Below are positions 1,459-42,291 of a stretch of 48,772 bases of DNA, piece by piece. Each line of letters starts with the position of its first letter. Within the stretch, counting starts at the first letter, position 1. This stretch comes from an uncultured Dehalococcoidales bacterium (GTDB lineage: Bacteria > Chloroflexota > Dehalococcoidia > E44-bin15): contig CAYTKL010000001.1 in NCBI GenBank assembly GCA_964438305.1, positions 1-48,772 on the forward strand, read 5' to 3'. The translations under genes and the position numbers were made by a program. Under the pieces are notes generated by a model that saw only the letters and a list, made by a program, of their open reading frames with translations, did no database searches and was not told the DNA's origin.

Positions 1459-1464
1459 GAGCTG

Positions 1465-2685: not shown

Positions 2686-2758
2686 TTCGGTCTGTGTATC
2701 CCATCCGGCGACAGCACATCCAGGGATGTCAGCTTCGGGGATCCCCTGTGGAGATTCG

Positions 2759-3976: not shown

Positions 3977-4004
3977 TGTCCTCCTGCCGTAGAATGCCGG
4001 ACCA

Positions 4005-5225: not shown

Positions 5226-5298
5226 ATCTGTGTAGCCTCGTCCTCTTTCTCGCCAGTCGTATTCCAGGGCGTCAACCCGGGGAGTCCCGCGATGCCGT

Positions 5299-6519: not shown

Positions 6520-6545
6520 GTTGCTCGCCTCCCATTCTCAAGCTT

Positions 6546-7760
6546 CTAGATAACGCCTTCGGCTCTCATCACCGCCAGGTCTTGCCTGCTGTACCCCAGC
6601 CGTCCGCACAGGACCTCTTCGTTGTGCTCGCCCAGCAACGGTGCGGGGCGTTGCACCTGCCACGGGGTCTGGGACAGCTTGTAGGGCGCTCCCGGGAACC
6701 TTACCCTTCCCACCTCTTCTCGGTCGACCTCGGCGAAGTAGTTCCGAGCGGCCAGTTGCTCGGAGTTGGTGGATTCCTTCACAGTATTGACCGGCATGCA
6801 GGGGACGCGTCTGGCTTGCGCGGCACGGACCAGCTCACCCAGGCTCTGGTCCTTGGCCCACTCCTCGATCATTATCTTGGCCGCATCCCAGTTCTCCCGA
6901 CGTGCGGCGCGGTCCTGGAACAGCTCGCTGGCGGCCCATTCGGGGTTGCCCATTACCTCCACCCAATTGGCCCAGAACCTGTCGGTGTTGCAGACGACGA
7001 AGAACTGGCCGTCTCTGCACTGTCCCAGCAACGTCTCAGTGCTCGGTTGGGCCCCCTTCACCCGAATCCTTTCGAGACCCTCGTAGGTTGCCGCGCCCAA
7101 ATCACGTCGTATTACCGAGGCCAGAGCCTCGTGTTGCGACAGGTCCACGTGCCGTCCCTGTCCTGTGGCATGACGAGCGAAGACGGCTGACATTGTGGCG
7201 ATCGCCCCGCTCAAACCGGCCAGGAAATCAGCTTGAAGCGATTTCCCCCGCAGCGGCGGTTCTTCCTGGATGTCGTCGACCCCGCCCGACGGGTTCATAT
7301 GAGCCAGCCCGCTGACGTGGAAACTGACGAGGTCGCAGGCTTTGTAGTCGCGGTAGGGCCCGCTCTGCCCGAAGGGCGTGATCGAGGTCATTACCAGCCC
7401 TGGATGGGCCTTGCTGAGCGTACGGTAGTCGAACCCCAGTTCCTCGACTTCCCGTGGTGAGTGGTTCTCGATGAGAATATCGGCCTGCGTGACCAGCTCC
7501 TTGAGAATCTCGGCGCCGGTGACGCTGGCCCAATTCAAGGTCACTCCCAGCTTGTTGGTGTTGAGATACAGATAGAGTCCGCTCTTCTCGGTATGGGGCA
7601 GGTCCTGGGGGAAGGGTCCGTAGCTCCTTGACCTGTCGCCATAGCCGGGCTTCTCGACCTTGACCACTTCGGCACCCAGGTCAGCGAGGAGCTTGCCACA
7701 GTAGGGCCCCGAGATGAACTCGCCCCACTCAATCACCTTCAAATCGGAAAGCGCACCCAT
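6546..7760 (-). CDS. Family III CoA-transferase, B-type paralog (B3)
   Basis: 404-aa ORF. MGALSDLKVIEWGEFISGPYCGKLLADLGAEVVKVEKPGYGDRSR. Confidence 0.9.
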   Translation of the reverse strand: MGALSDLKVIEWGEFISGPYCGKLLADLGAEVVKVEKPGYGDRSRSYGPFPQDLPHTEKSGLYLYLNTNKLGVTLNWASVTGAEILKELVTQADILIENHSPREVEELGFDYRTLSKAHPGLVMTSITPFGQSGPYRDYKACDLVSFHVSGLAHMNPSGGVDDIQEEPPLRGKSLQADFLAGLSGAIATMSAVFARHATGQGRHVDLSQHEALASVIRRDLGAATYEGLERIRVKGAQPSTETLLGQCRDGQFFVVCNTDRFWANWVEVMGNPEWAASELFQDRAARRENWDAAKIMIEEWAKDQSLGELVRAAQARRVPCMPVNTVKESTNSEQLAARNYFAEVDREEVGRVRFPGAPYKLSQTPWQVQRPAPLLGEHNEEVLCGRLGYSRQDLAVMRAEGVI

Positions 7761-7799
7761 AGAACATACTCCCTTTGACAGTACTCGGCGGACAGAGGC

Positions 7800-9020
7800 C
7801 TACACAAGCACTTCAGCCTCTTCCAGGTGACGAATCTCAGCTTCGGACAGTCCCAGCAGCTCGCCCAGCACGTAGGCCGTATGCTCACCCAGGAGAGCTG
7901 GGCGTCTGGCGACGCCTGGCGATTCAGCCAGGCGCATGACCACGCCAGGATAGGACGCCACGCCCATCTTGGGATGGTCTATTCGAACGTAGGTCCCTCT
8001 ATGTGCTAGCTGAGGGCAGTTCGCCTGGTCCTGCCCATCCAGCACAGCGGCGGCCGGCACCCCGGCCTTCTGCAGCACCTCCATTACCTCGAGATGGGTG
8101 CGGTTGGCGGTCCACTCCTCGACACGGCGGTCGAGCTCATCTCGGTTATCCAGCCGGCCCAAGACGGTGGCGAATCTGGGTTCCTCCGTCCACGGAGGGT
8201 TGCCCAGAGCGCCGCAGAACCTCCTCCACTCGTCATCATTCCTGACCTCGATGGCACACCATCGCTCTTCCCCCATGCAGGGATAGGCGCCGTACGGTGC
8301 GGCATAGGGACTGTGGTTGCCCCTTCGTTCCTGCAGCCGACCGTTGACGGTGTAGTCCATGTACACGCTCTCCATGATGGTCGCCGCATTCTCCACCTGG
8401 GCCATGTCGATGAACTGTCCCTTGCCGGTGCGGTTGCGGTACTCAACGGCTGCCATGATCATAAGGGCCGCCGTGACGCCGGCGAGATAGTCCGTGGGGT
8501 AGCCCCCCGAGCCTGTCGGGGTGGGGATGTCCGGGAATCCCCACACGTAGGTGAGACCGGCCAGAGGCATGAGGTTCATACCCCACAGCACGTACTCGTG
8601 CTCCGGCCCGGTCTGTCCCAGGCCCTGCATGCTGACCATGATGAAATCGGACTTCACTTCCCTCAGTCCCCAGTAGTCCAGCCCGAACCCGCGCAGAACA
8701 CGGGCACCGAAGTTGTCTATGGCGGCATCACTGAGCTCGACCAGGCGCTTGATGAGCTCTCTGCCCTCCTCCTTCTTGAGGTCCACGCTGATACTCATCT
8801 TGCCGCGGTTGTACTCCGCCCAGCTCCACGACTTGTCGAAGTCCGGCTCAGTGTCCTTGGGATAGACGAGCCTGGGTCGCCGGAACGTGTCCAGGCGCTT
8901 CCTCGTCTCCACCACGATCACTTCCGCTCCGAAGTCGCACAACAACCTCCCGGCATACGGCCCGGCTATGCCGTTGGTGAAGGAGATTATCCTGATACCC
9001 TCGAGGGGGAGTGCGCTCAT
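7800..9020 (-). CDS. Family III CoA-transferase, divergent A-type paralog (A4)
   Basis: The ORF track gives 7800..9305. I trimmed it to the internal ATG at 9020 (MSALPLEGIRIISFTNGIAGPYAGRLLCDFGAEVIVVE), because the upstream 95 codons are Arg/Ser-rich and overlap the next gene. Resulting length is 406 aa, like the other copies. Confidence 0.85.
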   Translation of the reverse strand: MSALPLEGIRIISFTNGIAGPYAGRLLCDFGAEVIVVETRKRLDTFRRPRLVYPKDTEPDFDKSWSWAEYNRGKMSISVDLKKEEGRELIKRLVELSDAAIDNFGARVLRGFGLDYWGLREVKSDFIMVSMQGLGQTGPEHEYVLWGMNLMPLAGLTYVWGFPDIPTPTGSGGYPTDYLAGVTAALMIMAAVEYRNRTGKGQFIDMAQVENAATIMESVYMDYTVNGRLQERRGNHSPYAAPYGAYPCMGEERWCAIEVRNDDEWRRFCGALGNPPWTEEPRFATVLGRLDNRDELDRRVEEWTANRTHLEVMEVLQKAGVPAAAVLDGQDQANCPQLAHRGTYVRIDHPKMGVASYPGVVMRLAESPGVARRPALLGEHTAYVLGELLGLSEAEIRHLEEAEVLV

Positions 9021-9051
9021 CGCCCGCTTCACTTCCTTTGGATTCTCCAGT

Positions 9052-10284
9052 TCATATGACACCCGAAGCGCTGAGAGCACACAATTCCTCGCTCGACAGC
9101 CCCAGTTCTCCGCAGTAGACCTCCGCGTTGTGCTGGCCGATGAGCGGGGCGGGACGCTCGATTGCCTCCCACGGCACGGCGAGGTTGTAGGGCGAGCCGG
9201 GATACAGTTGTCTCCCGACCACGGGGTGATCGCCCTCAACGAAGAAACCTCTCGCCTTCGTCTGCGGACTGTCAAAGAAATCGGCCGGCGTTTGCACCGG
9301 CGCAATGGGGAAATGCCTTGCCTGTCCCTCTTTGTACAGCTCCGCCTTGGTGTACTTCATGGTGTGCTCAGTAATGTATGGGTTCAACACATCGACGTTC
9401 TGACGACGGAAGTTCGGGTCCTCCCACACCGGCTCAGCAAGCACCTCAGGGCTGCCAATCCACTCGACGAAGGATGGCCAGCTACCGGGCGCATTGCCGG
9501 GGACAAGCCCGCCAACGACGTAGGCATGTCCGTCTTTGCACGGATAGATGGCGGCCGGGGCTGTCGTGTGCTGGCTTCCGTGACGGGTCACGATCTCCTC
9601 GAAATTGAGCCACCTGGTCGCCATCCCCTCTCCGATGCTGGTGGCCGAGACGTCGTGAATGGCGATATCCACGTGTTGCCCTGCACCAGTCACGGAGCGA
9701 TGACGGAGGGCGATGAGGGTAGCCAGAGCGGCATGGAGCGCGGTGTTGTGCAGCGCCATCAAGATGGGCGATACGCTCGGCGGGCGAGAAGGCTCCCCGC
9801 ACTGAAACATGGCGCCCATGGCGAAGCTTATCAGTTCGGTGGTCTTGAAATCTCTGTAGGGTCCGTTCTGCCCGAAGCCGGTGATCGAGGTCATGATCAG
9901 TGACGGGTTGGCCTCAGCCAGGGCCGAGTAACCGAGCCCCAGGCTGTCCAGGTGCCCGGGAGACAGGGACTCCACCACTACATCCGCGTCACTCACCAGC
10001 CTCTTGAAGATTTCCTGTCCGTCTCGGCACTCGATGTTGAGGGTAATGCCCCTTTTGTGCCGATTGTAGTAGAGGAAGAAGAAACCCTTCTCGGGGTGAG
10101 GGTCGTCACCAGCGAAAGGAGGTATACTCCTGGTCTCGTCGCCGCCGGGTCTCTCTATCTTGACGGTGTCGGCGCCGAACTCGGCCAGGAGCTTCCCACA
10201 GTAGACGCCCTTCTCATCAGCTACCTCGATGACTCTATAGGGACTTAAAGGAGCGCCATTCCTCCTTTTGTTGGATGCGGTCAT
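9052..10284 (-). CDS. Family III CoA-transferase, divergent B-type paralog (B4), first gene of the array
   Basis: The ORF track gives 9052..10479. I trimmed it to the ATG at 10284 (MTASNKRRNGAPLSPYRVIEVADEKGVYCGKLLAEFGADTVKIERPGGD). ITGFGQNGPY is present. No clear SD, so the start is uncertain by a few codons. Confidence 0.8.
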   Translation of the reverse strand: MTASNKRRNGAPLSPYRVIEVADEKGVYCGKLLAEFGADTVKIERPGGDETRSIPPFAGDDPHPEKGFFFLYYNRHKRGITLNIECRDGQEIFKRLVSDADVVVESLSPGHLDSLGLGYSALAEANPSLIMTSITGFGQNGPYRDFKTTELISFAMGAMFQCGEPSRPPSVSPILMALHNTALHAALATLIALRHRSVTGAGQHVDIAIHDVSATSIGEGMATRWLNFEEIVTRHGSQHTTAPAAIYPCKDGHAYVVGGLVPGNAPGSWPSFVEWIGSPEVLAEPVWEDPNFRRQNVDVLNPYITEHTMKYTKAELYKEGQARHFPIAPVQTPADFFDSPQTKARGFFVEGDHPVVGRQLYPGSPYNLAVPWEAIERPAPLIGQHNAEVYCGELGLSSEELCALSASGVI

Positions 10285-10335
10285 GTTGCGTGTTGTATCT
10301 GTGAGGCTAGTTTCCCAGGCGAAGCTTCCATGCAC

Positions 10336-10364
10336 ATTGTACGTGACGGCGAACTTGCCGTCAA
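10336..10364 (-). promoter_or_regulatory. Candidate sigma70 promoter for the CoA-transferase array (TTGACG-17-TACAAT)
   Basis: On the minus strand, the -35 TTGACG is plus 10359..10364, the spacer is 17 nt, and the -10 TACAAT is plus 10336..10341. It lies ~50 nt upstream of the 10284 start. Confidence 0.4.
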
Positions 10365-10451
10365 TTCCCTGTGGGCGGCGTTGGAGGTCGAGTCGCTGTT
10401 TCGGGTGAGTCGGCGCCTGCCATTTCGAGGCCGATAGGGGGTATCTCCAGA

Positions 10452-10480
10452 TTGACACTCCTATGGAAGTCGGATACACT
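10452..10480 (+). promoter_or_regulatory. Candidate sigma70 promoter for the mutase operon (TTGACA-17-TACACT)
   Basis: TTGACA at 10452..10457, 17-nt spacer, TACACT at 10475..10480. It is followed by the palindrome GCGTTGCAGCAACGC (10493..10507) and the SD AGGAGGA (10512..10518). Confidence 0.4.
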
Positions 10481-10523
10481 TCAATACAGTGAGCGTTGCA
10501 GCAACGCAGGTAGGAGGACTTGT

Positions 10524-12179
10524 ATGCCTAGCAAGAGCAAACAAGAGTGGCGGGATACCACCCTCAATAAGGCGTTGAGCCGTGCCCCAGAGCGTCAGGA
10601 GAGCTTTGAGATCAGCTCAGGGAGTGCGATCGACGCGCTGTATACACCTGAGGACCTGGAGGGGCACCCCTACGTAGATGACGTGGGGTATCCGGGAGAG
10701 TACCCCTTCACCCGCGGTATCCAGCCCACCATGTACCGGGGAAGGCTGTGGACCATGCGGCAGTACGCCGGGTTTGCCGACGCTGAGGAGTCCAACAAGC
10801 GCTACCGGTACCTTCTGGAACAGGGGCAAACGGGGTTGAGCATAGCCTTCGACCTTCCGACCCAGATCGGCTACGATTCAGACCACCCGATGGCTGCGGG
10901 GGAGGTTGGGAAGGTAGGGGTGGCGATAGACAGCCTGGCCGATGTCGAGGTGCTTTTCGACCAGATTCCCCTGGGTAAGGTAAGTACGTCGATGACGATA
11001 AACTCGACCGCACCGGTGTTGCTCGCCATGTACGTCGCCCTGGCCAAGAAGCAGGGAGTCGATCCAAAGGAGCTGAACGGTACAATCCAGAACGACATTC
11101 TGAAGGAGTACGTTGCCCGTGGCACTCATATCTTCCCGCCGCGGCCGTCGATGCGCCTGATAACCGATATCTTCAAGTACTGCGGGGAAGAAGTCCCCCG
11201 CTGGAACACCATAAGTATCAGCGGCTACCACATCAGGGAGGCGGGTTCCACGGCGGCGCAGGAGGTCGGTTTCACGCTGGCCAATGGCATCGCCTATGTT
11301 CAGGCGGCCATTGACGCCGGTCTGGACGTCGATGCCTTCGCCGGTAGACTCTCCTTCTTCTTCGCTTCCTACGGCAACCTCTTCGAGGAGGTGGCGAAGT
11401 TCAGGGCGGCTCGTCGCCTGTGGGCCAGGATCATGCGCGAACGTTTTGGGGCCAAAGAGCCTCGAAGCTGGATGCTGCGCTTCCACACCCAGACCTGCGG
11501 CCATACATTGACCGCGCAGCAGCCACTGAACAACATCATCAGGACTGCAGTGCAGGCTCTGGCGGCCGTGCTTGGCGGGACCCAATCCCTTCACACTAAC
11601 TCGTACGACGAGGCCTACGCTACCCCCAGCGAGGACGCGGTGACCATTGCCTTGCGTACCCAGCAACTGCTGGCCTATGAGACGGATGCCGCCAACATGG
11701 TGGACCCTCTAGGGGGCTCATTCATGGTGGAGTCACTGACCAATACCCTGGAGGAGGAAGCGAAAAACTACATAGCCAAGATTGACGAAATCGGTGACGC
11801 GCTGGCGGCGATCGAGGAAGGGTACCCGCAGCGGGAGATCCAGGAGAGTTCCTATCGAACCCAGAACGATATTGAGAGTGAGAAGAAGGTCGTGGTGGGC
11901 GTGAACAAGTTTGTCTCCCCCTATCCCAAGATAACAGGCCTTCTCAAGTTCGACCCTCAGGTGGCGATCAGGCAGAAGGAGCGCCTGGCTCAAGTGAAGC
12001 AAAGCAGGGACGGCGCCAAGGTGGGCGCTGCGCTGGAGAAGCTGCAGAAGGTGGCGTCGGGCAGCGACAACACCATGCCGGCGGTGTTGGAGTGCGTCGA
12101 GGCGTACGCAACCATCGGTGAAGTATGCGACGTACTTCGGGGAGTCTTTGGCGAACAAAGGGAATTCCTTGCCTTCTAG
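10524..12179 (+). CDS. Methylmalonyl-CoA mutase family, catalytic (N-terminal TIM-barrel) subunit
   Basis: ORF trimmed to the ATG at 10524, which follows AGGAGGA. Blocks [62 protein letters not shown] and [12 protein letters not shown] are characteristic of MCM large subunits. There is no B12 domain in this ORF. Confidence 0.9.
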
Positions 12180-12211
12180 GCATAGCGGACAAAGGAGCAA
12201 AGGAGGAAATA

Positions 12212-12610
12212 ATGATCAAGCGGATCGACCACGTCTCCATCGCGGTGAAGGACCTCGATGAAGCCTTGGGGGTCTTCAAGGCTGTCTTTGGGCTCGAGTC
12301 AGTGCACCAAGAGGAAATCCCCGATCAGGGGGTGAAGGCAGCCCTTATCAAGGTCGGCGATGGCGAGATCGAGCTTGTTGAGCCGATAGACCCCGAAGGA
12401 GGGGTAGCGAAGTTCATCGAAAGGCGGGGCGAGGGCATTCATCATATCTGCCTTGAGGTGGACAACATCGATGAGGAACTGAAGTCGCTGGAAGCGAAGG
12501 GTGTGGCCCTCATCGACAAGCAGCCGCGAAGAGGTCTGGCGGGAATGATTGGCTTTGTGCATCCCAAGGCGACAAAGGGGGTGCTGGTGGAGCTGGCTCA
12601 GAAGGTGTGA
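12212..12610 (+). CDS. mce: Methylmalonyl-CoA epimerase (VOC/glyoxalase fold), copy 1
   Basis: Trimmed to the ATG at 12212, which follows AGGAGGA. MIKRIDHVSIAVKDLDEAL, EIELVEP, GIHHICLEV and GVLVELAQ give the H/E/H/E metal-ligand pattern of MCE. Confidence 0.8.
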   Translation: MIKRIDHVSIAVKDLDEALGVFKAVFGLESVHQEEIPDQGVKAALIKVGDGEIELVEPIDPEGGVAKFIERRGEGIHHICLEVDNIDEELKSLEAKGVALIDKQPRRGLAGMIGFVHPKATKGVLVELAQKV

Positions 12611-12674
12611 TCGCGATCCCGCTGCGATAAGACAGGACCTGTCATGCACCCGAGTACGATGCTGGGGGGGAAGG

Positions 12675-13061
12675 ATGATAAAGGGAATCGGTCATGCGGG
12701 GATTCTAGTCAGCAATCTCGATGAGGCGGTGGAGTTGTACTGTGACCTGTTTGGCCTGGAGCCGCTCACACAGGTAACTGACTGGCCCGGGGAAGGAATG
12801 AAGAACGTACTGCTGAAGGTGGGCAATCAAGCCTTTGAAGTGATGGAGCCGACCGACCCTCAGGGTGGTCTGGCGCGGTTCCTGGAGCGGCGTGGTGAGG
12901 GATTGCATCACCTGAACCTCGAGGTCGATGACGTGGACGGCCTGGTCAAGTCGCTGGAGGCCAAGGGTGTGGTCACACTCGGGAGAGGGCCGGGTTTCTG
13001 TTTCCTGCACCCCAAGTCAACCAGGGGTGTTCTGTTCGAGCTTATTCAAAGCGCAAAGTAA
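12675..13061 (+). CDS. Methylmalonyl-CoA epimerase-like VOC protein, copy 2 (paralog)
   Basis: Trimmed to the ATG at 12675. MIKGIGHAGILVSNLDEAV, AFEVMEP, GLHHLNLEV and GVLFELIQ are collinear with copy 1. Confidence 0.75.
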   Translation: MIKGIGHAGILVSNLDEAVELYCDLFGLEPLTQVTDWPGEGMKNVLLKVGNQAFEVMEPTDPQGGLARFLERRGEGLHHLNLEVDDVDGLVKSLEAKGVVTLGRGPGFCFLHPKSTRGVLFELIQSAK

Positions 13062-13073
13062 GGAGAGTCCTTA

Positions 13074-13478
13074 ATGGAGGAAAAGATCAGGGTCTTGATT
13101 GCCAAGCCGGGCCTGGACGGCCATGACCGAGGCGCAAAGCTGGTGGCCCGCATTCTTCGCGACGCCGGGATGGAGGTCATCTATAGCGGGTTACGCCAGA
13201 CCCCGGACATGATCGCCGAAGCCGCACTGCAGGAGGATGTCCAGGTTGTGGGGTTGAGCATCCTTTCCGGGGCGCACATGGAGATCTTCCCTGCAATCTT
13301 AGAACGTCTCAAGGAAAAGGGATTGGACAAGGTGGTTGTGGTCGCCGGCGGGATTATCCCCGAGGAGGATGTCCCCGCTCTGGACAAGATCGGCATAAAG
13401 GCCGTTTTCGGTCCGGGCGCTTTGAGTCAGGAAATCGTTGACTCCATCAAGAAGGCGGTGGCCAAGGGAGCCAACTAG
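13074..13478 (+). CDS. Methylmalonyl-CoA mutase B12-binding (C-terminal domain) subunit
   Basis: 134-aa ORF after the [37 protein letters not shown] carries the DxHxxG cobalamin-binding signature. GLSILSGAH and [10 protein letters not shown] are also present. Confidence 0.9.
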
Positions 13479-33554: not shown

Positions 33555-34148
33555 TTACGGGAACACGTCCTGATACCCGTCCGCATCTGTCGCGGTGCAG
33601 GCGGAGCCGACGCATAGCGATACCACGTTCTCGTCGGTGTTGTTCCAGTAGTAGACATAGTGAGCCGAGCTGGAGCAGGTGCACGTAGTGTTGCCCACGC
33701 TGGCAACGTCACAGTTGTCGTCGAGGGTCCCTGACTGCAGGATTGCCGAACTGGGAACCGTGTCGCCCTCGAAGTACCCCAGGGCCACCAACTCACAGAT
33801 GTTGATGATGGCCCACTCGTCGACGACGTCCTGACCAGCCAGACCATCGCCGCTGCCCCCACGCCAAGCGAAGCCGGAGTCACCATCCATGTCACCACTG
33901 GCGTCGTACACCGGGTAGTCGTAGTCATGGCCCACCCAGTAGTCGAGGCACGCATTTTCGAGCGTGCTCTTGTGGAGGTCATAGCTCGTTGACTGAGCAC
34001 CGCCGCCGAAGCCGCCGATGGCGTAGATCACACCGCCGAGCAGGATCGCCACGATGACCATCACGATGAGCATCTCTATCAGAGTGAAGCCCCGCTCGCC
34101 GCCGTCTTTCCTGAGCCCCAATGCCTTGAATCGCTTCATAACATCCAT
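33555..34148 (-). CDS. Type IV pilin / pseudopilin (probable major subunit), prepilin-type N-terminus
   Basis: MDVMKRFKALGLRKDGGERG then FTLIEMLIVMVIVAILLGGVIYAI. This is a basic leader ending in Gly, Phe at +1, Glu at +5 and a hydrophobic helix. The globular part has 7 Cys. The SD GGAGGTG lies upstream. Confidence 0.9.
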   Translation of the reverse strand: MDVMKRFKALGLRKDGGERGFTLIEMLIVMVIVAILLGGVIYAIGGFGGGAQSTSYDLHKSTLENACLDYWVGHDYDYPVYDASGDMDGDSGFAWRGGSGDGLAGQDVVDEWAIINICELVALGYFEGDTVPSSAILQSGTLDDNCDVASVGNTTCTCSSSAHYVYYWNNTDENVVSLCVGSACTATDADGYQDVFP

Positions 34149-34479: not shown

Positions 34480-35247
34480 TCAACCCGACAGCAGGCGCAA
34501 GAGCCAATCGGAAATGGGCTGTGCCCACAACAAGGTGACCATGGCCGCTACGGCAAGGAAGGGGCCGAAGGCGATGGCGTGCTTCCTGGTTCTTCTGCCG
34601 AATGCGAGAAGCAGGATGGCTAGCAGGCCGGCGGGCACTATGGCGAGTGCGAGGGCGAGAAGAACATGGGGGAAGCCGGTAGCCAGCCCGATAAGCCCCG
34701 CCAGTTTGACGTCGCCGCCTCCCATGCCGCCCCGCGAGAGCAGATATGGGGCTAGCAGAAGTGAGAAGCCTATTACCCCTCCCAAGAGCGCGCTCAGAAT
34801 CCCCACGCTTGGCCATTCCAATCCAGGCCAGAAAAAGGAGAAGACAAGCGCCAGGACCATCCCCGGGTACACTACCACATCGAGGATGAGGCCGTGTTCA
34901 AGGTCGGTTACAAAGATCACCAGGAAGATGCAGGCGTAGGCCAGAGCCATCGGTAGTTGTGGGGTCAGGCCATAGTGCCACGTGAGCAGGGCGAATAGAA
35001 GGGCCGTCGTCAGCTCCGTCACCGGTACCCGCAGCGAAATGCGAGCGCCACAGTGACGGCATCGACCGCGCAGCCAGAGGTAGCTGAAAAGAGGCACCAG
35101 GTCACCGAACCCGAGCCTTTGCTGGCACTGTTCGCAGTGGGAAGGGGGAGTGATAATGGAGCGCCGATGTGGCAGACGATCGCAGCACAGGTTGAGGAAA
35201 CTGCCCACAGCGAGTCCGAGTAGGGCGAAGAGGGGGATGGCTATCAT
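34480..35247 (-). CDS. pilD: Prepilin peptidase / N-methyltransferase (A24 family)
   Basis: N-terminal zinc motif CEQCQQ...CRHCGARIS, multiple TM segments and GMGGGDVKLAGLIGLATG (GxGDxK catalytic Asp block). Confidence 0.9.
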   Translation of the reverse strand: MIAIPLFALLGLAVGSFLNLCCDRLPHRRSIITPPSHCEQCQQRLGFGDLVPLFSYLWLRGRCRHCGARISLRVPVTELTTALLFALLTWHYGLTPQLPMALAYACIFLVIFVTDLEHGLILDVVVYPGMVLALVFSFFWPGLEWPSVGILSALLGGVIGFSLLLAPYLLSRGGMGGGDVKLAGLIGLATGFPHVLLALALAIVPAGLLAILLLAFGRRTRKHAIAFGPFLAVAAMVTLLWAQPISDWLLRLLSG

Positions 35248-36125
35248 AATGCCCTGAGGATGAGGCCGAGGTTCACCGCGTAGTCCGCGACGGGCAGGTC
35301 GCTTGGGCAGCGGAGCGGTGGGTGCAGCTTGGCAACGGGGTGGTCGATTGCACCGCTGGCAGCGAGTTGGAACGTCTGGTCTCCGGCTGCGGTGCCCGTC
35401 AGGTATACCGGCAGTTGCGGTGCGAGCGGGTTGTCCCGATAGTCAGTAGAGTACAAGGAGACGGCCTGCACCAGTTCCTGGCCGACGTGGCCGACCACGT
35501 GATCAATGGTGCCGGAGTCCTCGCCCAGGTAGACGCTGCGAATGACCATGGGCACACCATCGCGTACAATAGTCACGTCGACGCTGGTTGCCTCCCCGTT
35601 GGCGATGATGGCGTTCCTCTTGTTCACCGCTCGCATGAGCGCCATTGGTTTCAATTCAATGACGCTCGGCTTGAGTCCGGCTGCGTCGAAGGCTCTGAGC
35701 GAGGTGGTAAAGGGTCCCCGTGGTAGCAAGACGATGTATACACGCTGCTTGCCATTGCCGTTGGGCAATACCTGCCAACGGATGTGCCACTGCGCGGGAT
35801 GGCCGTCGGTCAGCCTCCTCACCTCTCGACGGAGTACACCGTCCAACAGCTTGCTGTTCAGAGGGGGCAGGTTGAGGATTCGCACCGTGGTGCCGAGGGC
35901 GGAGTGGGCCCAGAGAATCCTCCCCTTTGACAGCTTGCGCTCTGCGAGGGCGGCGCGGATCAGACCTCCCAACCCGGCTGGGTCAGCGACATGGCCCTTC
36001 TTGAGAAACTGGGGAGCGAAGGGTATGGTGTCCCAGGTCTCCACGGTGCGGCCGGTAGCGCTGACCACTCTCAGTGAGTTGCCTTCGATACTCAGAGCGA
36101 CGAGCCGTTTTGCTATTGCAAACAT
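35244..36125 (-). CDS. pilM: PilM-like pilus assembly protein (actin-like fold)
   Basis: 293 aa. N-terminal LVALSIEGNSLRVVS, RILNLPPL, IELKPMALMRAV and VYLTGTAAG follow the PilM layout. 4-nt overlap with pilD. It lies next to the PilN/PilO-like genes. Confidence 0.6.
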   Translation of the reverse strand: MFAIAKRLVALSIEGNSLRVVSATGRTVETWDTIPFAPQFLKKGHVADPAGLGGLIRAALAERKLSKGRILWAHSALGTTVRILNLPPLNSKLLDGVLRREVRRLTDGHPAQWHIRWQVLPNGNGKQRVYIVLLPRGPFTTSLRAFDAAGLKPSVIELKPMALMRAVNKRNAIIANGEATSVDVTIVRDGVPMVIRSVYLGEDSGTIDHVVGHVGQELVQAVSLYSTDYRDNPLAPQLPVYLTGTAAGDQTFQLAASGAIDHPVAKLHPPLRCPSDLPVADYAVNLGLILRAL

Positions 36126-36146: not shown

Positions 36147-36716
36147 CTAGGGCCGGGCATAGACGATGATATCGATGCTGATGGTCCAGTACGCCGGCTC
36201 CTCTTCGGTGGCGACGACGAACTCGATGACTACGTTCTTTATGACCGTGGTCTCGTACGGTGCGTTCACCTCCAGTTCATCGAGGAAGGCATAGAGGGCC
36301 GGCAGCTTGTCCGCGGCGGCGCCAACCTCATAAATGAAGGCTTTGTACACCGTCCCGTTGTTGTTCAGAAACACGTCGATCGGGCCCTCGGGGATGAAGC
36401 GCTGGCCCTGGACTTCAGCGTTCTGGAGCCCGTAGATCACGAGGTCGTTGACTTCGATGTTCTCCACGTCGTCGGCTTTGGGGAAAGCCGAATCATCGAG
36501 TTCTTCCTGGAGGGTGGCAAGGGCGGCTTCCAGTGCGTCCAGGTCGTACTGGTTCTCGATGCTGGCGATGTCACTTTCTACGTCGGCCATCTGTGTCTCC
36601 AGGTCGGAAGCCGCTTGCACCTGCTGCACGATGACTACGGTGAAGTATACCCCCAGTCCAATCAGGGCGACCACCGCCACCAAGAGGAGGAGCTGTAGTT
36701 GAGTCAGCTTCTTCAT
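36147..36716 (-). CDS. PilO-like bitopic pilus assembly protein
   Basis: 189 aa. Short N-terminus, one TM (LQLLLLVAVVALIGLGVYFTVVIV), a coiled-coil-like acidic segment and a small C-terminal domain. The call rests on position (between the PilN-like gene and PilM) and topology only. Confidence 0.4.
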   Translation of the reverse strand: MKKLTQLQLLLLVAVVALIGLGVYFTVVIVQQVQAASDLETQMADVESDIASIENQYDLDALEAALATLQEELDDSAFPKADDVENIEVNDLVIYGLQNAEVQGQRFIPEGPIDVFLNNNGTVYKAFIYEVGAAADKLPALYAFLDELEVNAPYETTVIKNVVIEFVVATEEEPAYWTISIDIIVYARP

Positions 36717-38200
36717 TCAGCACCTCCTGTTTGCTTGAGTGTTACAGTGATGATGAAGGCGTAGGGAGGGGTGTATCCAGTGACTTCCCAGTAGAGGTAG
36801 TCGTAGGCCTCCTCCATCGATATGGTATCGTCCTCGTTCACATCCGCGGGTCCGTTAAGTCCCTCGACGAAGTAGTAGGTGAACACCCCGTTCTCTAACA
36901 GAGGGTCTTCGTAGGAGTACTGCTCTTCGTCACAGGCGGTGAGTACCACACCCTCTATTGTCTCGTTGAGGTCCCGGGCAAAGCCGTCGCCATCACGCGG
37001 CGCAACTTCGCCGGGAGAGCCCTTGCTCGCGGCAAGGCCGTACTTGAACATGCCGCCACTGTAGCAGGTGTCGATCGCTACCAACACGGGGCTGCCAGGC
37101 AGTCCGCCAAGCCACACGCCCAGCTCATCATCCGTGATGCCCGACATTGGGTCGAAGAAGTCGAAGTCGTATGGGCAGAGGACCTCGTCGTAGTCATCGG
37201 CTTCGTCGAGCGGCATTTGGTCGGCAATGATGCCTCCGTGTCCCGAGAAGTAGAAGAAGAAAACGTCGTCGGCGTCACCGTTGGCTGCCATGTAGTCGAT
37301 GGCGTCCTCTATCCCCGACTTGGTCGCGGCATCGTCTATGAGCATAGTGATGTGGCTATCCTGCCAGTTGGGGTAGTCAAGCAGCACCTCACGTACGTCC
37401 TCGGCATCGTCGTCGGTGTAGCTCAGAGGAGTGAGACCCTGGCCCGGTGGATAGTCGGCGACTCCGACGATCACCGCCCAGTACTCCACGCCAACTGTGA
37501 CGTTGGCTGCTGTGACCAGGGTGGCTTCACCTGTCCAGTTGTCGTACATCTGGGGCGTCTGCTCCAGGTCAGCCCTTCCCCTTTCGGTAATCTGATAGGT
37601 CCACTCGATGTCCGGGTCGTAGGGAGGTGAATCGTGGAACAACTCGCTCTCAAGAAGGGCGTGAGCATACTCGGAGATGCGGATGCTGGCGTCGGTGATG
37701 CCCTCGACGACTACCTGATTGCCGTCCTGGGCGATGTAGGTCAGGTCTATTTCCGCCGGTGCCAGGTCATCGATCTCTTCCACGACGTCGGACCACGGCG
37801 CGTAGGTGAACATCTGGTCGTAGGCCTGTTCATAGTCGACCAGTGTGCTGGTCGTGCTGTCGATCTCCTCCAGCATCGACTTCGCCTGCGGTATCAGGTT
37901 GGTCTTGAGTCCACTCAGGTGGTCCTGGCGCTGCGCTAGCTCCGCCTCGAGGTCAGCTACGTGGTCCTGCTTGTCCGACATGTATCCATAGAGATTGGGC
38001 AGGTCCGGCGCAGCCTCGACCATGGCGAAGGGCAGCATCGCGTACCCTAGAATCAGAACGAGGACCACGAGGAGGATGCTGAGGTTGGGCACCGAGACGG
38101 ACAGTTGGGACTTGGCCGTGCTGTGCTTCACCTTGCCGTCAAAGAGATTGATCTCGAGCGGCGAATCTGTGCGGTCCAGAGGTTCCTGTTTGTCAGCCAT
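36713..38200 (-). CDS. PilN-like pilus assembly protein fused to a caspase-like (peptidase C14-type) domain
   Basis: - **PilN-like part (residues 1-190):** EINLFD (compare the PilN INLLP motif), TM LSILLVVLVLILGYAMLPFAMV, a coiled coil, and WSDVVEEIDDLAPAEIDLTYIAQDGNQVVVEGITDASIRISEYAHALLESELF.
- **Caspase-like part (residues ~238-470):** YWAVIVGVADY, DDVFFFYFSGHG (His321, codon 37238..37240), VLVAIDTCYSG (Cys379, codon 37064..37066) and NGVFTYYFVEGLNGPADVNEDDTISMEEAYDYL. Confidence 0.8.
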   Translation of the reverse strand: MADKQEPLDRTDSPLEINLFDGKVKHSTAKSQLSVSVPNLSILLVVLVLILGYAMLPFAMVEAAPDLPNLYGYMSDKQDHVADLEAELAQRQDHLSGLKTNLIPQAKSMLEEIDSTTSTLVDYEQAYDQMFTYAPWSDVVEEIDDLAPAEIDLTYIAQDGNQVVVEGITDASIRISEYAHALLESELFHDSPPYDPDIEWTYQITERGRADLEQTPQMYDNWTGEATLVTAANVTVGVEYWAVIVGVADYPPGQGLTPLSYTDDDAEDVREVLLDYPNWQDSHITMLIDDAATKSGIEDAIDYMAANGDADDVFFFYFSGHGGIIADQMPLDEADDYDEVLCPYDFDFFDPMSGITDDELGVWLGGLPGSPVLVAIDTCYSGGMFKYGLAASKGSPGEVAPRDGDGFARDLNETIEGVVLTACDEEQYSYEDPLLENGVFTYYFVEGLNGPADVNEDDTISMEEAYDYLYWEVTGYTPPYAFIITVTLKQTGGAE

Positions 38201-38248
38201 TGGAACGTCCTTCTAACGTAAATTAACTATAAGTGCCAGTAGTTGGCT

Positions 38249-38277
38249 ATTATATCAGATGGCTACCTAAAAGTCAA
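38249..38277 (-). promoter_or_regulatory. Near-consensus sigma70 promoter for the pilN-caspase/pilO/pilM/pilD unit (TTGACT-17-TATAAT with TG extension)
   Basis: On the minus strand, the -35 TTGACT is plus 38272..38277, the spacer is 17 nt, and the -10 TATAAT is plus 38249..38254. It carries the same TGATATAAT nonamer as the pilin promoter. It lies in an AT-rich island ~50 nt upstream of the 38200 start. Confidence 0.6.
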
Positions 38278-38458
38278 TACTTAGACCTTTAAAGATTATC
38301 TACAATGAACCACTACTCATTGTAGGCTATAGCAATGCAAACGGGCCGGGCTCCGACTCCGAGATGTGAGACTCGCCAACCTATGCCACCTCGACCTGTC
38401 GCGATGACCGATAGTTATGCGCAACCGCTGTGTCCGCCGGGCAGCGGCCTCACCAGGG

Positions 38459-40369
38459 CTAGTCGTATTGGTAGCTCAGGATACTGACCGGCAGCACGCC
38501 CGGGTCGGTGCTTGGGTCGGTGCGGAAGGAGAGGATGACGTAGATCAGGTTCCAGGAATCGACCCACGTGCCGAGGAGAACCTCGGCCTCTGTCTGGCCC
38601 GGGGTGACGTAGGGTGTCGCGTCGAAAGTGTCAATGTCCACACCGTCAATGAACTCGCCGTCGAGGCCACTGGACTTGCCGTTCCACACGTCGTCTTGGG
38701 GGTTGACCCCGTCGTAGGGGTCATCCTCGTGCGGCAGGAGGTGACCTTCGAACCGCAGGTAGTCGGAGTTGTAGGCATCGTCCCCCTCGCCGACGAAGAC
38801 GGTGAGGCGGGCCCCCTCGTCGCCGGGATCAAGCTCTGGCACGAGGAAACCCTCTATCGCGTCCAGGTACACGTTCTGGTACATCTCCATGTAGAAGAAG
38901 TCATCGTAGAGGTACATCTGGTGGGCGTTCTCGTCTTGGTGCGAATACACTACGACCAGCGACCAGCCGGCATAGGACCACTCGTCGTCGGTGGCCCAGT
39001 AGTAGCCTCTATACTGCCCGTACCACAGACCGTATTCATCATCGATGCCGTCTATTCTCCTCACCTTATAGCTGCAATTGGGGCTGTCGAGTGCGGCGAC
39101 CAGGTCGGTGACGTCGGCGCGACAGGAGAAGGCCCAGCCGTGGCCTGAGCCGTCGGAATTGGTGTTCGGCAGTATCTGTACCCGGTCGGCGTCTACGTCG
39201 ATATCGATCCAGGTTCCCCCCGACTGCTTGGTGCCCAACCGTGCCACGTCCACTTCCTCGGCGAGTTCGACAAGCTCCTCTTCTTCGTAGTCGGTGATGT
39301 CAACTGGGTACCTCCTCCACGCCGACCAGTAGAGGTAGGCCAGCTCGATACTGGCGCCTTCAGGGATATCGCTGAGAGTGGCCGTGGTGTCCTCGGCCCG
39401 GTAGAGGAGCGTTTCGCGGCGCAGGTTGCTGTTTTGGTCCTCCATCAAGCTGCTGCCGATGGCGCGATAGTCCCCGTACGCTTCGCTCAGTTCCTCGTAG
39501 ATTTCCGAGCTGCCGACAAAGGCCTGGAGGGCAACGTCCTCGTCGGTCTCTTGGTGTACTGCGGTGGACGAAACCGCGTAGAGGTCGCTGTCCACGTCCC
39601 ATGACAGATAGATGTCATGTCGAGTCGTCCGTATCCAACTGAACTCACCGCTGGGGTCAAGCGCTGGCGTGAAGTCGAAGTAGAGCAGCCTTCGGAGAGG
39701 GTACTCGAAGGAACCGCCTTCGCCGCCTCCTGGCGGAGGAAGGTCCTCGAACAGGACGCCCTCGGGGGTGGTGAACTCCCATTCGAGAGCCGTGCCCCCG
39801 CGGAAGGAACTGGCGGTGGGATTGTCAGGAACGTCCTCGTGAGTGGTGATTCCGCTGGCCGAATCGGTGATGTACGTGAAGCCGGCCGGGAGCCATGCCC
39901 CCACCTTGTCCAGCTTGAGGTTGCCGTCCAGCGAGCCGTCGTAGGTCATCTCGATCCTGAATGTCCCGCCGTCTTCCCCCATCTCGACCACGTGGCTCAC
40001 GACGGCCAACTCGTCGTGAGGGACTGTCCCGTAGATTGGGGTCTCCAGGCCATCCAGTATCCAGACGGCCTCGATGCTGACCTCCACCTCGCAGCCGTTG
40101 ACGTCCTGTATGGTGTACACCCAGGGGTCGTCCCCGTACTCCGGAAGGTCGTCGTGCTGGTTTTGCACCTTGTGAGCCGCATCCTCGACGCCGGCATCAG
40201 CGGCGTAGAACTGCGACGTCCATTCCTGGTGTCGCTGGGCGCTGCGCATTCCCGATGCCATGAAGACCAGGAGCGGCACCACCACGATGCTCACCATGAG
40301 CACAAGTATAAGGACGAAGGAGAGCACGTAGCCGTCCTCATTGTGCCGCAGCCTCACAATCCTGTTCAT
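38459..40369 (-). CDS. Large PilX/GspK-like minor pilin-like protein with a big C-terminal domain
   Basis: 636 aa. The N-terminus EDGYVLSFVLILVLMVSIVVVPLLVFMASGMRSAQRHQEWTSQFYAADAGVEDA follows the PilX N-terminal pattern (hydrophobic helix, then a QAFYAAEAG-like block). The C-terminal half (YLYWSAWRR, WSLVVVYSHQDE, LTVFVGEGDDAYNSDYLRFEGH, DVWNGKSSG, DIDTFDATPYV) reminds me of DUF3344-type domains, from memory and unverified. Confidence 0.55.
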   Translation of the reverse strand: MNRIVRLRHNEDGYVLSFVLILVLMVSIVVVPLLVFMASGMRSAQRHQEWTSQFYAADAGVEDAAHKVQNQHDDLPEYGDDPWVYTIQDVNGCEVEVSIEAVWILDGLETPIYGTVPHDELAVVSHVVEMGEDGGTFRIEMTYDGSLDGNLKLDKVGAWLPAGFTYITDSASGITTHEDVPDNPTASSFRGGTALEWEFTTPEGVLFEDLPPPGGGEGGSFEYPLRRLLYFDFTPALDPSGEFSWIRTTRHDIYLSWDVDSDLYAVSSTAVHQETDEDVALQAFVGSSEIYEELSEAYGDYRAIGSSLMEDQNSNLRRETLLYRAEDTTATLSDIPEGASIELAYLYWSAWRRYPVDITDYEEEELVELAEEVDVARLGTKQSGGTWIDIDVDADRVQILPNTNSDGSGHGWAFSCRADVTDLVAALDSPNCSYKVRRIDGIDDEYGLWYGQYRGYYWATDDEWSYAGWSLVVVYSHQDENAHQMYLYDDFFYMEMYQNVYLDAIEGFLVPELDPGDEGARLTVFVGEGDDAYNSDYLRFEGHLLPHEDDPYDGVNPQDDVWNGKSSGLDGEFIDGVDIDTFDATPYVTPGQTEAEVLLGTWVDSWNLIYVILSFRTDPSTDPGVLPVSILSYQYD

Positions 40370-40471: not shown

Positions 40472-41884
40472 CTATTCCGCCGTCCCTGTCACCCGCAGCG
40501 TCCAGGTGTCTATATGGCCGATGTCCCACCTAGCGTAGTCTCGGACAGACAGCTTCCATTCCCCCTGGGATTGCTTGCCGTTGAAGGTCGATATGTAGTT
40601 GTACCACCGGTAGATGTTGTCGGCACCGCCACCTGACTGGTTGTGCAGCATCTCGTAGGTGCCGTCGGGATGTATCACCGCTACCTGCAAGTCGCCGATG
40701 TAGGTGTGTTGAATGCCGACGTACACGTCGATGTTGGTTATGGTCAGATTGTCACCGCCGGGGACGGTAATGAGGCTGTCGACCCATCCATTGCGGTCGG
40801 GGATGAACACATCCTGATCGTTGGTGTACGTGAAGGTCTGCGGCCCAGGTGTGGGAGTGGGCGTGGGTGTGGCTGTCGGCGTAGGAGTTGGTGTGGGTGT
40901 GGGAGGGGGAGTGGGCGTGGGCGTAGGAGTTGGTGTGGGCGTGGGCGTAGGAGTCGGTGTGGGCATAGGAGTTGGAGTTGGTGTGGGCATAGGTGTAGGG
41001 GTTGGAGTGGGTGTGGGCATGGGAGTCGGAGTCGGTGTGGGCGTAGGCATAGGTGTTGGAGTTGGTGTGGGCATAGGCGTAGGCGTAGGAGTAGGCGTGG
41101 GGGTAGGTGTTGGTGTGGAGGGAGGTGATGGGGTGGCGACGGGTACGGGCAACCCGGTGAAGGGCCTCGGTTCGATATCGTAGATTCTCGTTGCGACCTG
41201 GTCGCCGACGTGGGCGGTGACTACCAGTCTCAAGACGTAGTTGTCCCAGTAGGCGTTGGTCTGCGGCATGCAACTGACCTCTGTACCGCTTGGGTGAGCC
41301 GCCGACGTGGTGCCGTAGGCCCCCCGTGTGCAGTCGACGAATGTGGTGGTCGTCTTGCCTCCGAACTCGATCAACTCGTCCTCGATGAGCAGGACTCCCG
41401 ATGTCGGGAAGTCACTCGTGCTTGACACGGTAACGGTAGTATCCTCCTCATCCATCGCTTGGCTGAGCAGTGCGCCGTATGCGGTTGTGTCAAGATAGTC
41501 GGCAACGGCGGTGTCCTCCTGCAACTCGCCATTGATGGAGTAGGCGCGCCTCAGTTCTCTGCTGCCGTCGGTGCCGTCAGTCAGGGTGTAGACTGCCTGG
41601 TACAGGTCGCCATACCAATCGGCCCAGTAGAAGGCGAGGAAGTCCTCGGTCGCAGGGTCATAGTCCACCACGACCTGCTGAGCTCCGACTGCGTCGTGAC
41701 TGACCCAATAGCCGGCGTGCTGCACCTGTCGGTAGGCGGTCATGTGGTCTCTATTGAGTCGGGAAGTGAGGAACAACTGGTATGCGGCCACGGTGACGGC
41801 GGAAGCGATGATACTGCCTATCAGCATGACGATGATAAGCTCGACGAAAGTGAAACCCTTTTGACCCGTTCTGCTGACCATCAC
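40472..41884 (-). CDS. Pseudopilin (GspJ/PilW-like N-terminus) with (TP)n linker and C-terminal proprotein-convertase P-domain
   Basis: - **Prepilin N-terminus:[10 protein letters not shown] then [20 protein letters not shown].
- **Linker (residues ~247-346):** almost pure TP/MP repeats.
- **C-terminal ~120 aa:[105 protein letters not shown] matches the P_proprotein domain pattern. Confidence 0.8.
40848..41130. repeat. Coding tandem repeat, (ACN CCN)n encoding the TP/MP linker
   Basis: The plus strand reads GGTGTGGGNGTNGG-type hexanucleotide repeats. Periodic CAT (Met) codons define 24-30-nt higher-order units. Confidence 0.9.
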
Positions 41885-42291
41885 CGGTCCACCTTGTACT
41901 CGGATACTGAGAATACCTGCTCGCCGCCAGCGGCGATTGTCACGGTTACCTGCTGAATCCCCTCGTCGTCGCCAGTGCCGTTTTCGCTGGGGTCGAGACG
42001 CACCGCGGTTACCTGCACCGCGAAGTTGTTGTTGTACGGGTCAGAGCTCAGGTCGATGTCCGGGTCGACAGCGTACTGAGGTGGGTTGTTGAGTTCGTCA
42101 TAGGAGCAGAGCTTGATGTACTCAAGTTCGGCCCGGGCCAGGCTCTCCGCTATGGTGCGGTCATTGACGTCGTCGGTCGTCTTGTAGGTGATGTGCATAG
42201 CAGTAAGAAGGCTGCTCACCACTACGCCGAGGATAGTCATAGCGATGATGACCTCGAGCAGAGTCTGCCCTTTCTGATCCCTGATTCTCAT
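41881..42291 (-). CDS. Minor pseudopilin (GspI/PilV-like)
   Basis: MRIRDQKG then [21 protein letters not shown] (Glu at +5, hydrophobic helix). 136 aa. 4-nt overlaps with both neighbours. Confidence 0.7.

Follow-up and report, generated by a model that had tools for sequence, protein, structure and literature searches.

The alignment components PilM, PilN and PilO of type IV pili (T4P), like GspL and GspM of type II secretion systems (T2SS), are regarded as passive scaffolds. PilN, as known from Thermus thermophilus (PDB 4bhq), and GspL, as known from EpsL, PulL and XcpY, share a common build of an INLLP-like motif, one transmembrane helix, a stalk and a ferredoxin-like domain. The same build recurs in a 495-residue protein encoded on the minus strand at 36713..38200 of a 48,772-nucleotide stretch of DNA from an uncultured Dehalococcoidales bacterium (Chloroflexota; assembly GCA_964438305.1, contig CAYTKL010000001.1), referred to here as the window, and, as for known PilNs, the gene stands beside pilO-like and pilM genes in a pilus operon. 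Unlike in known PilN and GspL proteins, however, the last β-hairpin appears to be interrupted by a 265-residue protease module, and unlike in known PilN systems, neither a secretin nor PilP is found in the window's pilus locus by open reading frame (ORF) list or Pfam, and the gene order pilN-pilO-pilM-pilD is unusual.

The inserted module resembles metacaspases (TbMCA2, Yca1, AtMC4 and MC9), GSU0716 and orthocaspases (MaOC1) in its caspase-hemoglobinase fold, its SGHG and D-x-C-x-SGG motifs, its putative acidic S1 positions and the DE-rich loop that follows the His; it differs from them in being predicted to be extracytoplasmic, in being nested in another domain and in having a relocated flanking motif. 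From the observed architecture, fold, residue conservation, operon context and distribution, we propose, with a probability of roughly 0.6, that the protein is the PilN of a secretin-less (monoderm-type) T4P and carries a nested, most likely active Arg/Lys endopeptidase that acts locally at the pilus base.

Consistent with the view of the initial annotation that no characterised T4P or T2SS alignment component is known to contain a protease domain, full-text literature searches returned no paper that connects a caspase/C14 domain with either PilN or type IV pili, and the main text of a 2012 survey of domain architectures in prokaryotic caspase homologues says nothing of pilus domains. The sequences are already public under generic names, while the PilN-C14 arrangement is undescribed in the papers found. 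An enzyme built into an alignment protein would be a new functional principle for type IV filament machines, and the enzyme itself would be metacaspase-like, extracytoplasmic and tethered to a machine, with candidate substrates in a defined neighbourhood; to our knowledge, hardly any bacterial C14 protein has been assigned a function. For protein evolution, the gene would offer a clean natural domain insertion together with a relocated terminal element of the inserted domain.

A PilN-like protein with a predicted nested module

The gene starts with an ATG preceded by a GAAGGA ribosome-binding site, encodes 495 residues and a stop codon with no internal stop, as seen in the ORF list and the translation, and overlaps the downstream PilO-like ORF (36147..36716) by 4 nt (ATGA). 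In these respects the initial annotation, which described an uninterrupted 495-residue ORF with several characteristic sequence blocks, was accurate: every block could be located, the codons given for His321 and Cys379 are correct, and so is the 4-nt overlap. Besides a 100% identical protein from the window's own contig (P0001; numbers with P and L denote database proteins and loci), a database search returned ten more homologues, full-length or nearly so, at 53-61% identity, some of which bear the source names 'caspase family protein [Dehalococcoidia bacterium]' or 'Tfp pilus assembly protein PilN', and conservation is reported below for the 11 family members. The parts of the protein are as follows.

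38087..38200, minus strand: predicted cytoplasmic N-terminus, aa 1-38, from the relatives' consensus
38141..38161, minus strand: PLEINLF, aa 14-20, an INLLP-type motif (unfused relatives' consensus RPxxxDxNLLPxEY)
38015..38086, minus strand: predicted single transmembrane helix, aa 39-62, from hydropathy and both structure models
37808..37993, minus strand: predicted extracytoplasmic helix/coiled-coil stalk, aa 70-131, from AlphaFold (AF2) secondary structure
37568..37807, minus strand: PilN globular domain, first five elements (α-β-β-α-β), aa 132-211, from Pfam and AF2
37505..37567, minus strand: relocated caspase flanking motif EQTPQMYDNWTGEATL and connector, aa 212-232, from BLASTP against P0013
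36773..37504, minus strand: caspase-fold catalytic module, metacaspase-like, aa 233-476, from Pfam, AF2, Foldseek and a PDB profile search
37238..37240, minus strand: codon of the putative catalytic His321 (FSGHG), present in 11/11 homologues and aligned with the SGHG of metacaspase 4
37064..37066, minus strand: codon of the putative catalytic Cys379 (DTCYSGG), present in 11/11 homologues and aligned with C139 of AtMC4
36989..37051, minus strand: disordered p20/p10-like inter-half loop, aa 384-404, a candidate autoprocessing site, with a predicted local distance difference test (pLDDT) score <50
36716..36772, minus strand: final PilN β-strand, aa 477-495, PPYAFIITVTLKQTGGAE, from the relatives' C-terminal strand

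At the N-terminus, family members show FPIELNLL where the window's protein has PLEINLF. Binding of PilM by the N-terminal motif of PilN is known from work on the Thermus PilM-PilN pair, as related in PMC13319060, and by analogy PLEINLF may dock to PilM. Hydropathy windows exceed 2.0 at aa 32-64 and delimit one hydrophobic segment at about aa 40-62, which both structure models of the protein render as a helix (38/39-55/63), and the predicted orientation in the membrane is N-in. The stalk that follows is modelled as two helices in one AF2 model (H70-101 and H103-130) and as a single one in the other (H70-131).

The PilN-like nature of this part, as proposed in the initial annotation, is supported by profile matches, structural matches and operon context. 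The Pfam PilN profile (PF05137) matches aa 139-190 above its threshold with an E-value of 7.6e-5 and finds 11/11 family members, the best at E 3.4e-8. In the full AF2 model the domain begins with the elements H136-146, E152-159, E162-169, H172-184 and E198-209, and in a spliced model, from which the insert was removed (pLDDT 79), an α-β-β-α-β-β domain is formed on a long helix. With this spliced model Foldseek returned as best PDB matches the periplasmic domains of EpsL, PulL, Thermus PilN, XcpY and PilO, with probabilities of 0.8-1.0 and TM-scores of 0.48-0.73 normalised to the target. Furthermore, a profile of the N-terminal half retrieved 50 proteins in an exhaustive search of 1.84 billion representative proteins, and every one tested was a PF05137 PilN.

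The combination of PilN and caspase in one ORF thus stands, but the end-to-end layout given in the initial annotation does not: alignment with relatives and structure models place the caspase module (aa ~212-476) inside the periplasmic PilN domain, within its last β-hairpin. The last 18 residues of the protein (YAFIITVTL...GG) correspond to the final PilN strand, as PPYAFIITVTLKQTGGAE aligns both with the C-terminal strand F-x-I-T-V-T-L-x-GG of short unfused PilNs (P0138, P0141, P0142 and others) and with the last strand of every long PilN relative. The segment is modelled as a strand in the full protein (E480-490) as well as in the spliced version (E218-226, pLDDT 83-89), and the order of elements assigned by DSSP in the full model, whose mean pLDDT is 75 with the caspase part mostly >90, is α-β-β-α-β-[insert]-β. 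Since the final PilN strand lies C-terminal to the caspase module, a simple joining of two genes could not yield this layout. Deleting the insert did not lengthen the Pfam PilN match beyond model position 53, so that the case for a nested insertion is built on the relatives' alignment and the models rather than on Pfam.

The borders of the module carry a second rearrangement. By BLASTP, residues 213-228 of the target align with residues 282-297 of P0013, a secreted caspase homologue, with 12/16 identical positions, and residues 229-479 align with residues 30-279 of the same protein: EQTPQMYDNWTGEATL precedes the caspase core in the target and EQHPQEYDNWPGEAVL follows it in the free paralogues. 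The relocated motif is modelled with a pLDDT of 83-93. Moving it back to a C-terminal position raised the C14 score from 66.7 to 68.3 bits and shifted the end of the match from model position 195 to 224, which is weak evidence, and in a natural paralogue used as control the C14 match also ends at position 196. Given the slight extension and the result of the control, we dropped the label 'circular permutation' and speak of a relocated flanking motif.

That separate pilN and caspase genes were merged through an error of assembly or sequencing is scarcely credible. The ORF is reproduced in two more assemblies of this organism, from other metagenome samples, one with an intact 495-aa frame and 2 nt differences (L091), the other identical over its 1049 nt, domain junction included (L090); at least 10 further assemblies, of related species, likewise retain a single ORF for homologues of 53-61% identity, in agreement with the earlier observation of no stop or frameshift between the parts, and the position of the PilN C-terminal strand after the caspase module also speaks against such an error. 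What could be held in favour of it is that in a related species the gene is split by a 62-nt deletion between GATGTA repeats (L007, 2357..3773) and that P0010 lacks 14 aa, IQTPQMYDNWLGEA, through an in-frame deletion in this PilN/caspase junction region as well; both deletions could be population variants or assembly errors. A word-index search with the N-terminal 229 aa returned P0137 alone, which we rejected as a natural unfused PilN because it corresponds to the 5' half of the P0006 gene in a copy split by the 62-nt deletion.

A survey for the PilN-C14 architecture revealed a recurring fused form with a conserved pilus neighbourhood. Among 185,579 species-representative genomes, the full-length form occurs in two Dehalococcoidales metagenome-assembled genomes (MAGs), with copies cut by contig ends in two further Chloroflexota/Dehalococcoidia MAGs, and a metagenome scan with the N-terminal profile gave 6 loci, all of them fused forms; the contigs that carry the unfused relatives P0138, P0139 and P0142 are 1-3 kb long. 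The PilN-caspase form is therefore confined, across the genomes and metagenomes searched, to a narrow uncultured Dehalococcoidales clade. Two other candidates from the genome scan, with alignments that extended into the PilN half, were rejected as PilN fusions: the protein of L075 (Christensenellales) is secreted, with repeats followed by a caspase domain and without PilN, and L078 (Micropruina) has tandem caspase genes, again without PilN.

Conservation and predicted activity of the caspase-fold module

The caspase-like assignment of the initial annotation holds by both profile and structural comparison. Peptidase_C14 (PF00656) matches aa 241-452 with an E-value of 1.6e-17 and 64.4 bits against a gathering cut-off of 21.4 bits, and it matches 11/11 family members, whereas Peptidase_C13 gives weak matches in just 3/11. 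A profile search against PDB sequences retrieved GSU0716 and plant, yeast and trypanosome metacaspases at E-values of 1e-16 to 1e-8. The AF2 model, with a pLDDT >90 over most of aa 221-380 and 441-470, is matched by Foldseek at a probability of 1.00 to 3bij (GSU0716), 7qp0, 9n3e, 4f6o, 6w8r, MALT1 and caspases.

The putative His/Cys dyad named in the initial annotation is invariant in 11/11 homologues and aligns in sequence with the catalytic motifs of Arabidopsis metacaspase 4, where C379 corresponds to C139, the residue mutated in PDB 6w8r ('metacaspase 4 C139A'). Residues D265, S319 and D377 are likewise invariant in 11/11 homologues, and together with T262 they fall, by hidden Markov model (HMM) alignment and motif position, at the motif positions of C92, D95, S156 and D211 in TbMCA2. 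These four residues form the S1 site of TbMCA2, whose two Asp residues make room for basic substrates, in keeping with the specificity of metacaspases for basic residues (PMC4357240, PMC6426788). Within the family, mean pairwise identity is 70-76% in the caspase halves and 65% in the PilN core, which indicates that the constraint on the module is no weaker than that on PilN. With the dyad and the putative acidic S1 positions invariant and the module conserved at least as well as PilN, we regard the module as most likely an active endopeptidase with cleavage after Arg/Lys, probably specific to these residues.

We consider it unlikely that the caspase fold serves instead as a non-catalytic binding or structural module, for example as a substitute for the contacts of PilP or the secretin. 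Every other insert at the same site of PilN is non-enzymatic, and structural or regulatory pseudo-orthocaspases do exist, but pseudo-enzymes typically lose the dyad (PMC6426788), whereas here H321, C379 and the putative S1 Asp residues are kept in all 11 proteins and conservation peaks in the catalytic halves.

Between these halves, the loop at aa 384-404 has a mean pairwise identity of 44%, yet a basic residue is invariant at position 386 and present in 10/11 proteins at position 393. By analogy with type II metacaspases (PMC4357240), the loop is a candidate self-cleavage site, and a conserved basic residue in a disordered p20/p10 loop suggests activation by self-cleavage; after such a cut the two halves would remain joined, as the PilN sheet fixes both ends.

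The closest relatives of the module are the secreted Dehalococcoidia caspase homologues P0013 (= MGB2853800.1), P0016 and the gene of L013, which share 62% identity over the core and the motif QxPQxYDNWxGEAxL with the target. In contrast to the target, they have signal peptides and C-terminal repeat domains unrelated to pili, and their motif lies after the core; a C-terminal membrane anchor is present in P0013 and in the L013 gene but not seen in P0016. The module probably derives from a family of secreted, surface-anchored caspase homologues, and the signal peptides and anchors of its closest paralogues support the extracytoplasmic site of action that the initial annotation had deduced and that the predicted topology implies.

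Such a pedigree raises the question of whether PilN is a mere membrane anchor for a general surface protease that serves nutrient acquisition or protein turnover, with no dedicated function in building the pilus. The paralogues that would have donated the module are large proteases anchored at the surface, and the L013 paralogue adjoins a papain-like protease with the same repeats and anchor, as in an extracellular toolkit. The insert, however, interrupts a structural domain of an essential component, which is the only PilN in the operon, it is kept at the same site across the clade down to 53% identity, and free paralogues already supply the anchored form in the MAGs that hold the fused gene (L013 with L008, L012 with L010). 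A general protease that uses PilN as an anchor, although possible, is thus improbable in our judgement and less economical than a protease with local action at the pilus base.

The L013 cluster (8146..13203) encodes the 818-aa caspase paralogue with its signal peptide and, close by, a protein (11605..13203) that shares its repeats and its C-terminal transmembrane anchor. The intervening ORF at 10900..11544 has a CGNCWAW active-site Cys motif and, by eye, resembles the other part of a split papain-like protease with 11605..13203. The cluster suggests, from its sequence, a set of surface-anchored proteases.

Modules at the last PilN hairpin and the cell envelope

The last hairpin appears to be used for display in other PilNs as well. 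A group of modular PilNs of the same clade, of metagenomic origin and 400-1054 aa in length (P0139, P0140, P0147, P0157, P0164, P0166, P0168, P0173, P0180 and P0182), of which no description was found, carry one to many β-sandwich modules, mostly on Thr/Pro-rich linkers, inserted ahead of the final PilN strand, and all end with that strand (VEFVIVLELK or YSFVITVTL) after the insert. The inserts comprise a P-domain and BACON (P0139), PPC-like repeats of the form DEYExDD...NRGQYGPD (P0157, P0173 and others), BACON (P0164), TIG (P0166) and discoidin/F5_F8_type_C (P0180), in proteins that share with the target the backbone, the insertion point and the final strand. They differ from the target in that its insert is an enzyme on short connectors, whereas theirs are β-sandwiches, usually on long Thr/Pro-rich linkers; the caspase is the sole enzyme among the modules found at the PilN hairpin and is carried by one cluster at 50% identity. 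The nested P-domain of P0139 is 52% identical (E 6e-31) to the P-domain of a pilin encoded in the window (40472..41884), which suggests that modules move between pilus components. The variety of modules at this hairpin points to how secretin-less machines may adapt to unusual envelopes.

A further fusion in an alignment complex of the phylum is the PilO-LysM protein of Litorilinea aerophila (Chloroflexota; PMC13319060). It is comparable to the target as a Chloroflexota alignment-complex protein with an acquired, envelope-directed extra domain, and it differs in that the added domain is a wall-binding, non-enzymatic LysM, the carrier is PilO and the system is archaellum-associated.

These comparisons bear on a more specific possibility, which we hold as tentative and less likely than not: a ring of PilN-tethered Arg/Lys-specific proteases could cut the passage of the pilus through the protein S-layer of a peptidoglycan-less monoderm. 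Cultured Dehalococcoidales lack peptidoglycan and have an S-layer, and the locus, as mentioned above, is devoid of secretin and PilP. The envelope- or ligand-binding β-sandwich modules that related PilNs display at the same hairpin, together with the LysM wall-binding domain of a Chloroflexota PilO, suggest that the outer face of the alignment complex has repeatedly been adapted to envelope contact in this phylum, and the exit of filaments through S-layers has been described as unresolved (PMC13319060). If true, the proposal would provide a first answer to that question and the first protein-envelope counterpart of the lytic transglycosylases of other trans-envelope machines. Two features disagree with it: the short connectors, in place of a long Thr-Pro linker, would keep the protease at the PilN domain itself, some 9 nm away from the membrane, and no S-layer gene is linked to the pilus locus.

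In the reading that we prefer, of a PilN with a protease that acts locally at the pilus base, the LEINLF segment would dock to PilM, one helix would span the membrane, and the helical stalk of about 60 residues would lift the ferredoxin-like domain, paired with the PilO-like protein of the adjacent gene. With a complete metacaspase-like module inserted into the last β-hairpin of that domain, the alignment ring would surround the foot of the growing pilus with proteases on the outer side of the membrane, one per PilN copy. Possibly activated by self-cleavage in the p20/p10 loop, the protease would act on proteins that pass or surround the assembly site, with pilus subunits and large minor pilins, or a proteinaceous envelope layer crossed by the fibre, as candidate substrates.

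Several points weigh against this proposal. The PF05137 score of the target itself is marginal (23.1 bits against a gathering cut-off of 22.8), and Foldseek matched the PilN part with weak E-values (5e-3 to 7e-2). D265 is assigned to the S1 pocket by HMM alignment to AtMC4 and motif position, not by structural superposition. The position seven residues after the putative catalytic Cys, which, from the motif spacing, we take to be a Ca2+-ligand Asp in TbMCA2, is Lys or Arg in the target family, unlike in metacaspases but as in GSU0716; with one of four TbMCA2 Ca2+-ligand positions replaced, regulation may differ from that of characterised metacaspases. The other modules at the hairpin are all non-enzymatic binding domains, so that the site could serve chiefly to bind or to anchor. 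None of the operon partners co-varies with the insert, and the neighbour of about 630 aa is absent in L004. Finally, the host is uncultured, and we infer the topology, catalytic activity, specificity, substrates and self-cleavage of the protein.

The pilus locus and its surroundings

The genes of the window's pilus locus follow the order pilB-pilC-pilins-target-pilO-like-pilM-pilD.

43600..45348, minus strand: PilB ATPase (Pfam T2SSE/MshEN)
42288..43499, minus strand: PilC platform (Pfam T2SSF)
41881..42291, minus strand: minor pilin (Pfam N_methyl)
40472..41884, minus strand: pilin of 470 aa with a TP linker and a P-domain (Pfam P_proprotein; prepilin N-terminus)
38459..40369, minus strand: protein of 636 aa with a hydrophobic N-terminus (ORF)
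38249..38277, minus strand: promoter-like site TTGACT-17 nt-TATAAT, TG-extended, 11/12 consensus bases; predicted function
36147..36716, minus strand: PilO-like partner of 189 aa with a transmembrane helix, a coiled coil and a globular domain (position and architecture)
35244..36125, minus strand: PilM-like cytoplasmic actin-like partner of 293 aa (weak TIGR01175 match, E 1e-4)
34480..35247, minus strand: prepilin peptidase PilD (Pfam A24_N_bact, Peptidase_A24)
33555..34148: pilin

The order PilB-PilC-pilins-target-PilO-like-PilM-PilD recurs in L001, L004/L005 and L006, and L002 likewise counts among the loci with the target beside pilO-like and pilM; all 11 full-length homologues occupy the same operon position. 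The PilO-like gene lies directly downstream of the target homologue in L001, L002, L005, L006, L087 and L088, and the PilO-like protein of the window matched no profile above threshold, with a weak GspM match alone. The PilM orthologues of L001, L002 and L006 match PF11104 PilM_2. This conserved operon context argues that the target is the PilN of the pilus machine rather than an extra copy.

The pilins of the locus are of interest as candidate substrates. In the P-domain pilin (40472..41884), a (Thr-Pro)n linker of about 100 residues separates off a C-terminal proprotein-convertase P-domain and contains zero Arg/Lys, which makes it a poor target for a basic-specific protease; cleavage within this linker was therefore rejected. 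The 636-aa protein (38459..40369) has no Pfam, NCBIfam or PADLOC match, and its orthologues of 628-636 aa stand upstream of the target homologue in L001, L006 and L007, with none in L004. From its N-terminus, our guess is a large GspK/PilX-like minor pilin or tip protein.

The locus also bears on two other functions of caspase-like folds. One is a defence or suicide role, in which the protease is coupled to the pilus and set off when phages attack there; we rate it as very unlikely. Caspase-like proteases take part in several defence systems, and the module shows weak similarity to the EACC1-associated caspase and generic PADLOC caspase models, but both matches are below threshold: NF047832 (caspase_w_EACC1) scores 66.2 bits against a cut-off of 140, and the PADLOC caspase match spans 161/453 model positions, while no neighbour matches a defence model. 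The operon is an ordinary pilus operon without sensor NTPase, gasdermin or toxin, and the module would lie outside the cell, away from typical cytoplasmic death substrates. With neither a defence profile above cut-off nor partner genes in the locus, this reading was dropped.

The other is a transpeptidase or ligase that anchors or cross-links pilus proteins covalently, in the manner of the clan CD enzymes PorU, GPI8 and legumain. Clan CD enzymes of the same fold can catalyse transpeptidation, and the base of the pilus would be a fitting place for it; the domain, however, is clearly C14 metacaspase-like and not C13 or C25, we know of no transpeptidase within C14, and no sorting-signal-like motif was seen in the neighbouring pilins. 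A role of this kind is accordingly highly improbable, and we retain the endopeptidase of the PilN as the preferred reading.

The spacer upstream of the target (38201..38458) is 258 bp long and AT-rich within a contig of about 60% GC, and its promoter-like site, which the initial annotation had called near-consensus and which matches 11/12 positions upstream of the gene, is one of three such sites found in the region by a consensus scan, compared with 0.9 expected from shuffles. An 11-bp-stem hairpin (38300..38325) lies in the spacer just upstream of the promoter-like site. A near-consensus promoter and a hairpin in the same spacer would imply a separate transcription start within the pilus gene cluster.

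At the opposite end of the window, seven consecutive CoA-transferase family III genes (220..9305, minus strand) encode six proteins of about 405 aa and one of 501 aa, three of them assigned by Pfam and the rest by their similar N-termini. A methylmalonyl-CoA mutase-like gene (10371..12179) comes next, and the ORF at 13074..13478 is, as a guess from its sequence, the B12-binding subunit of that mutase.

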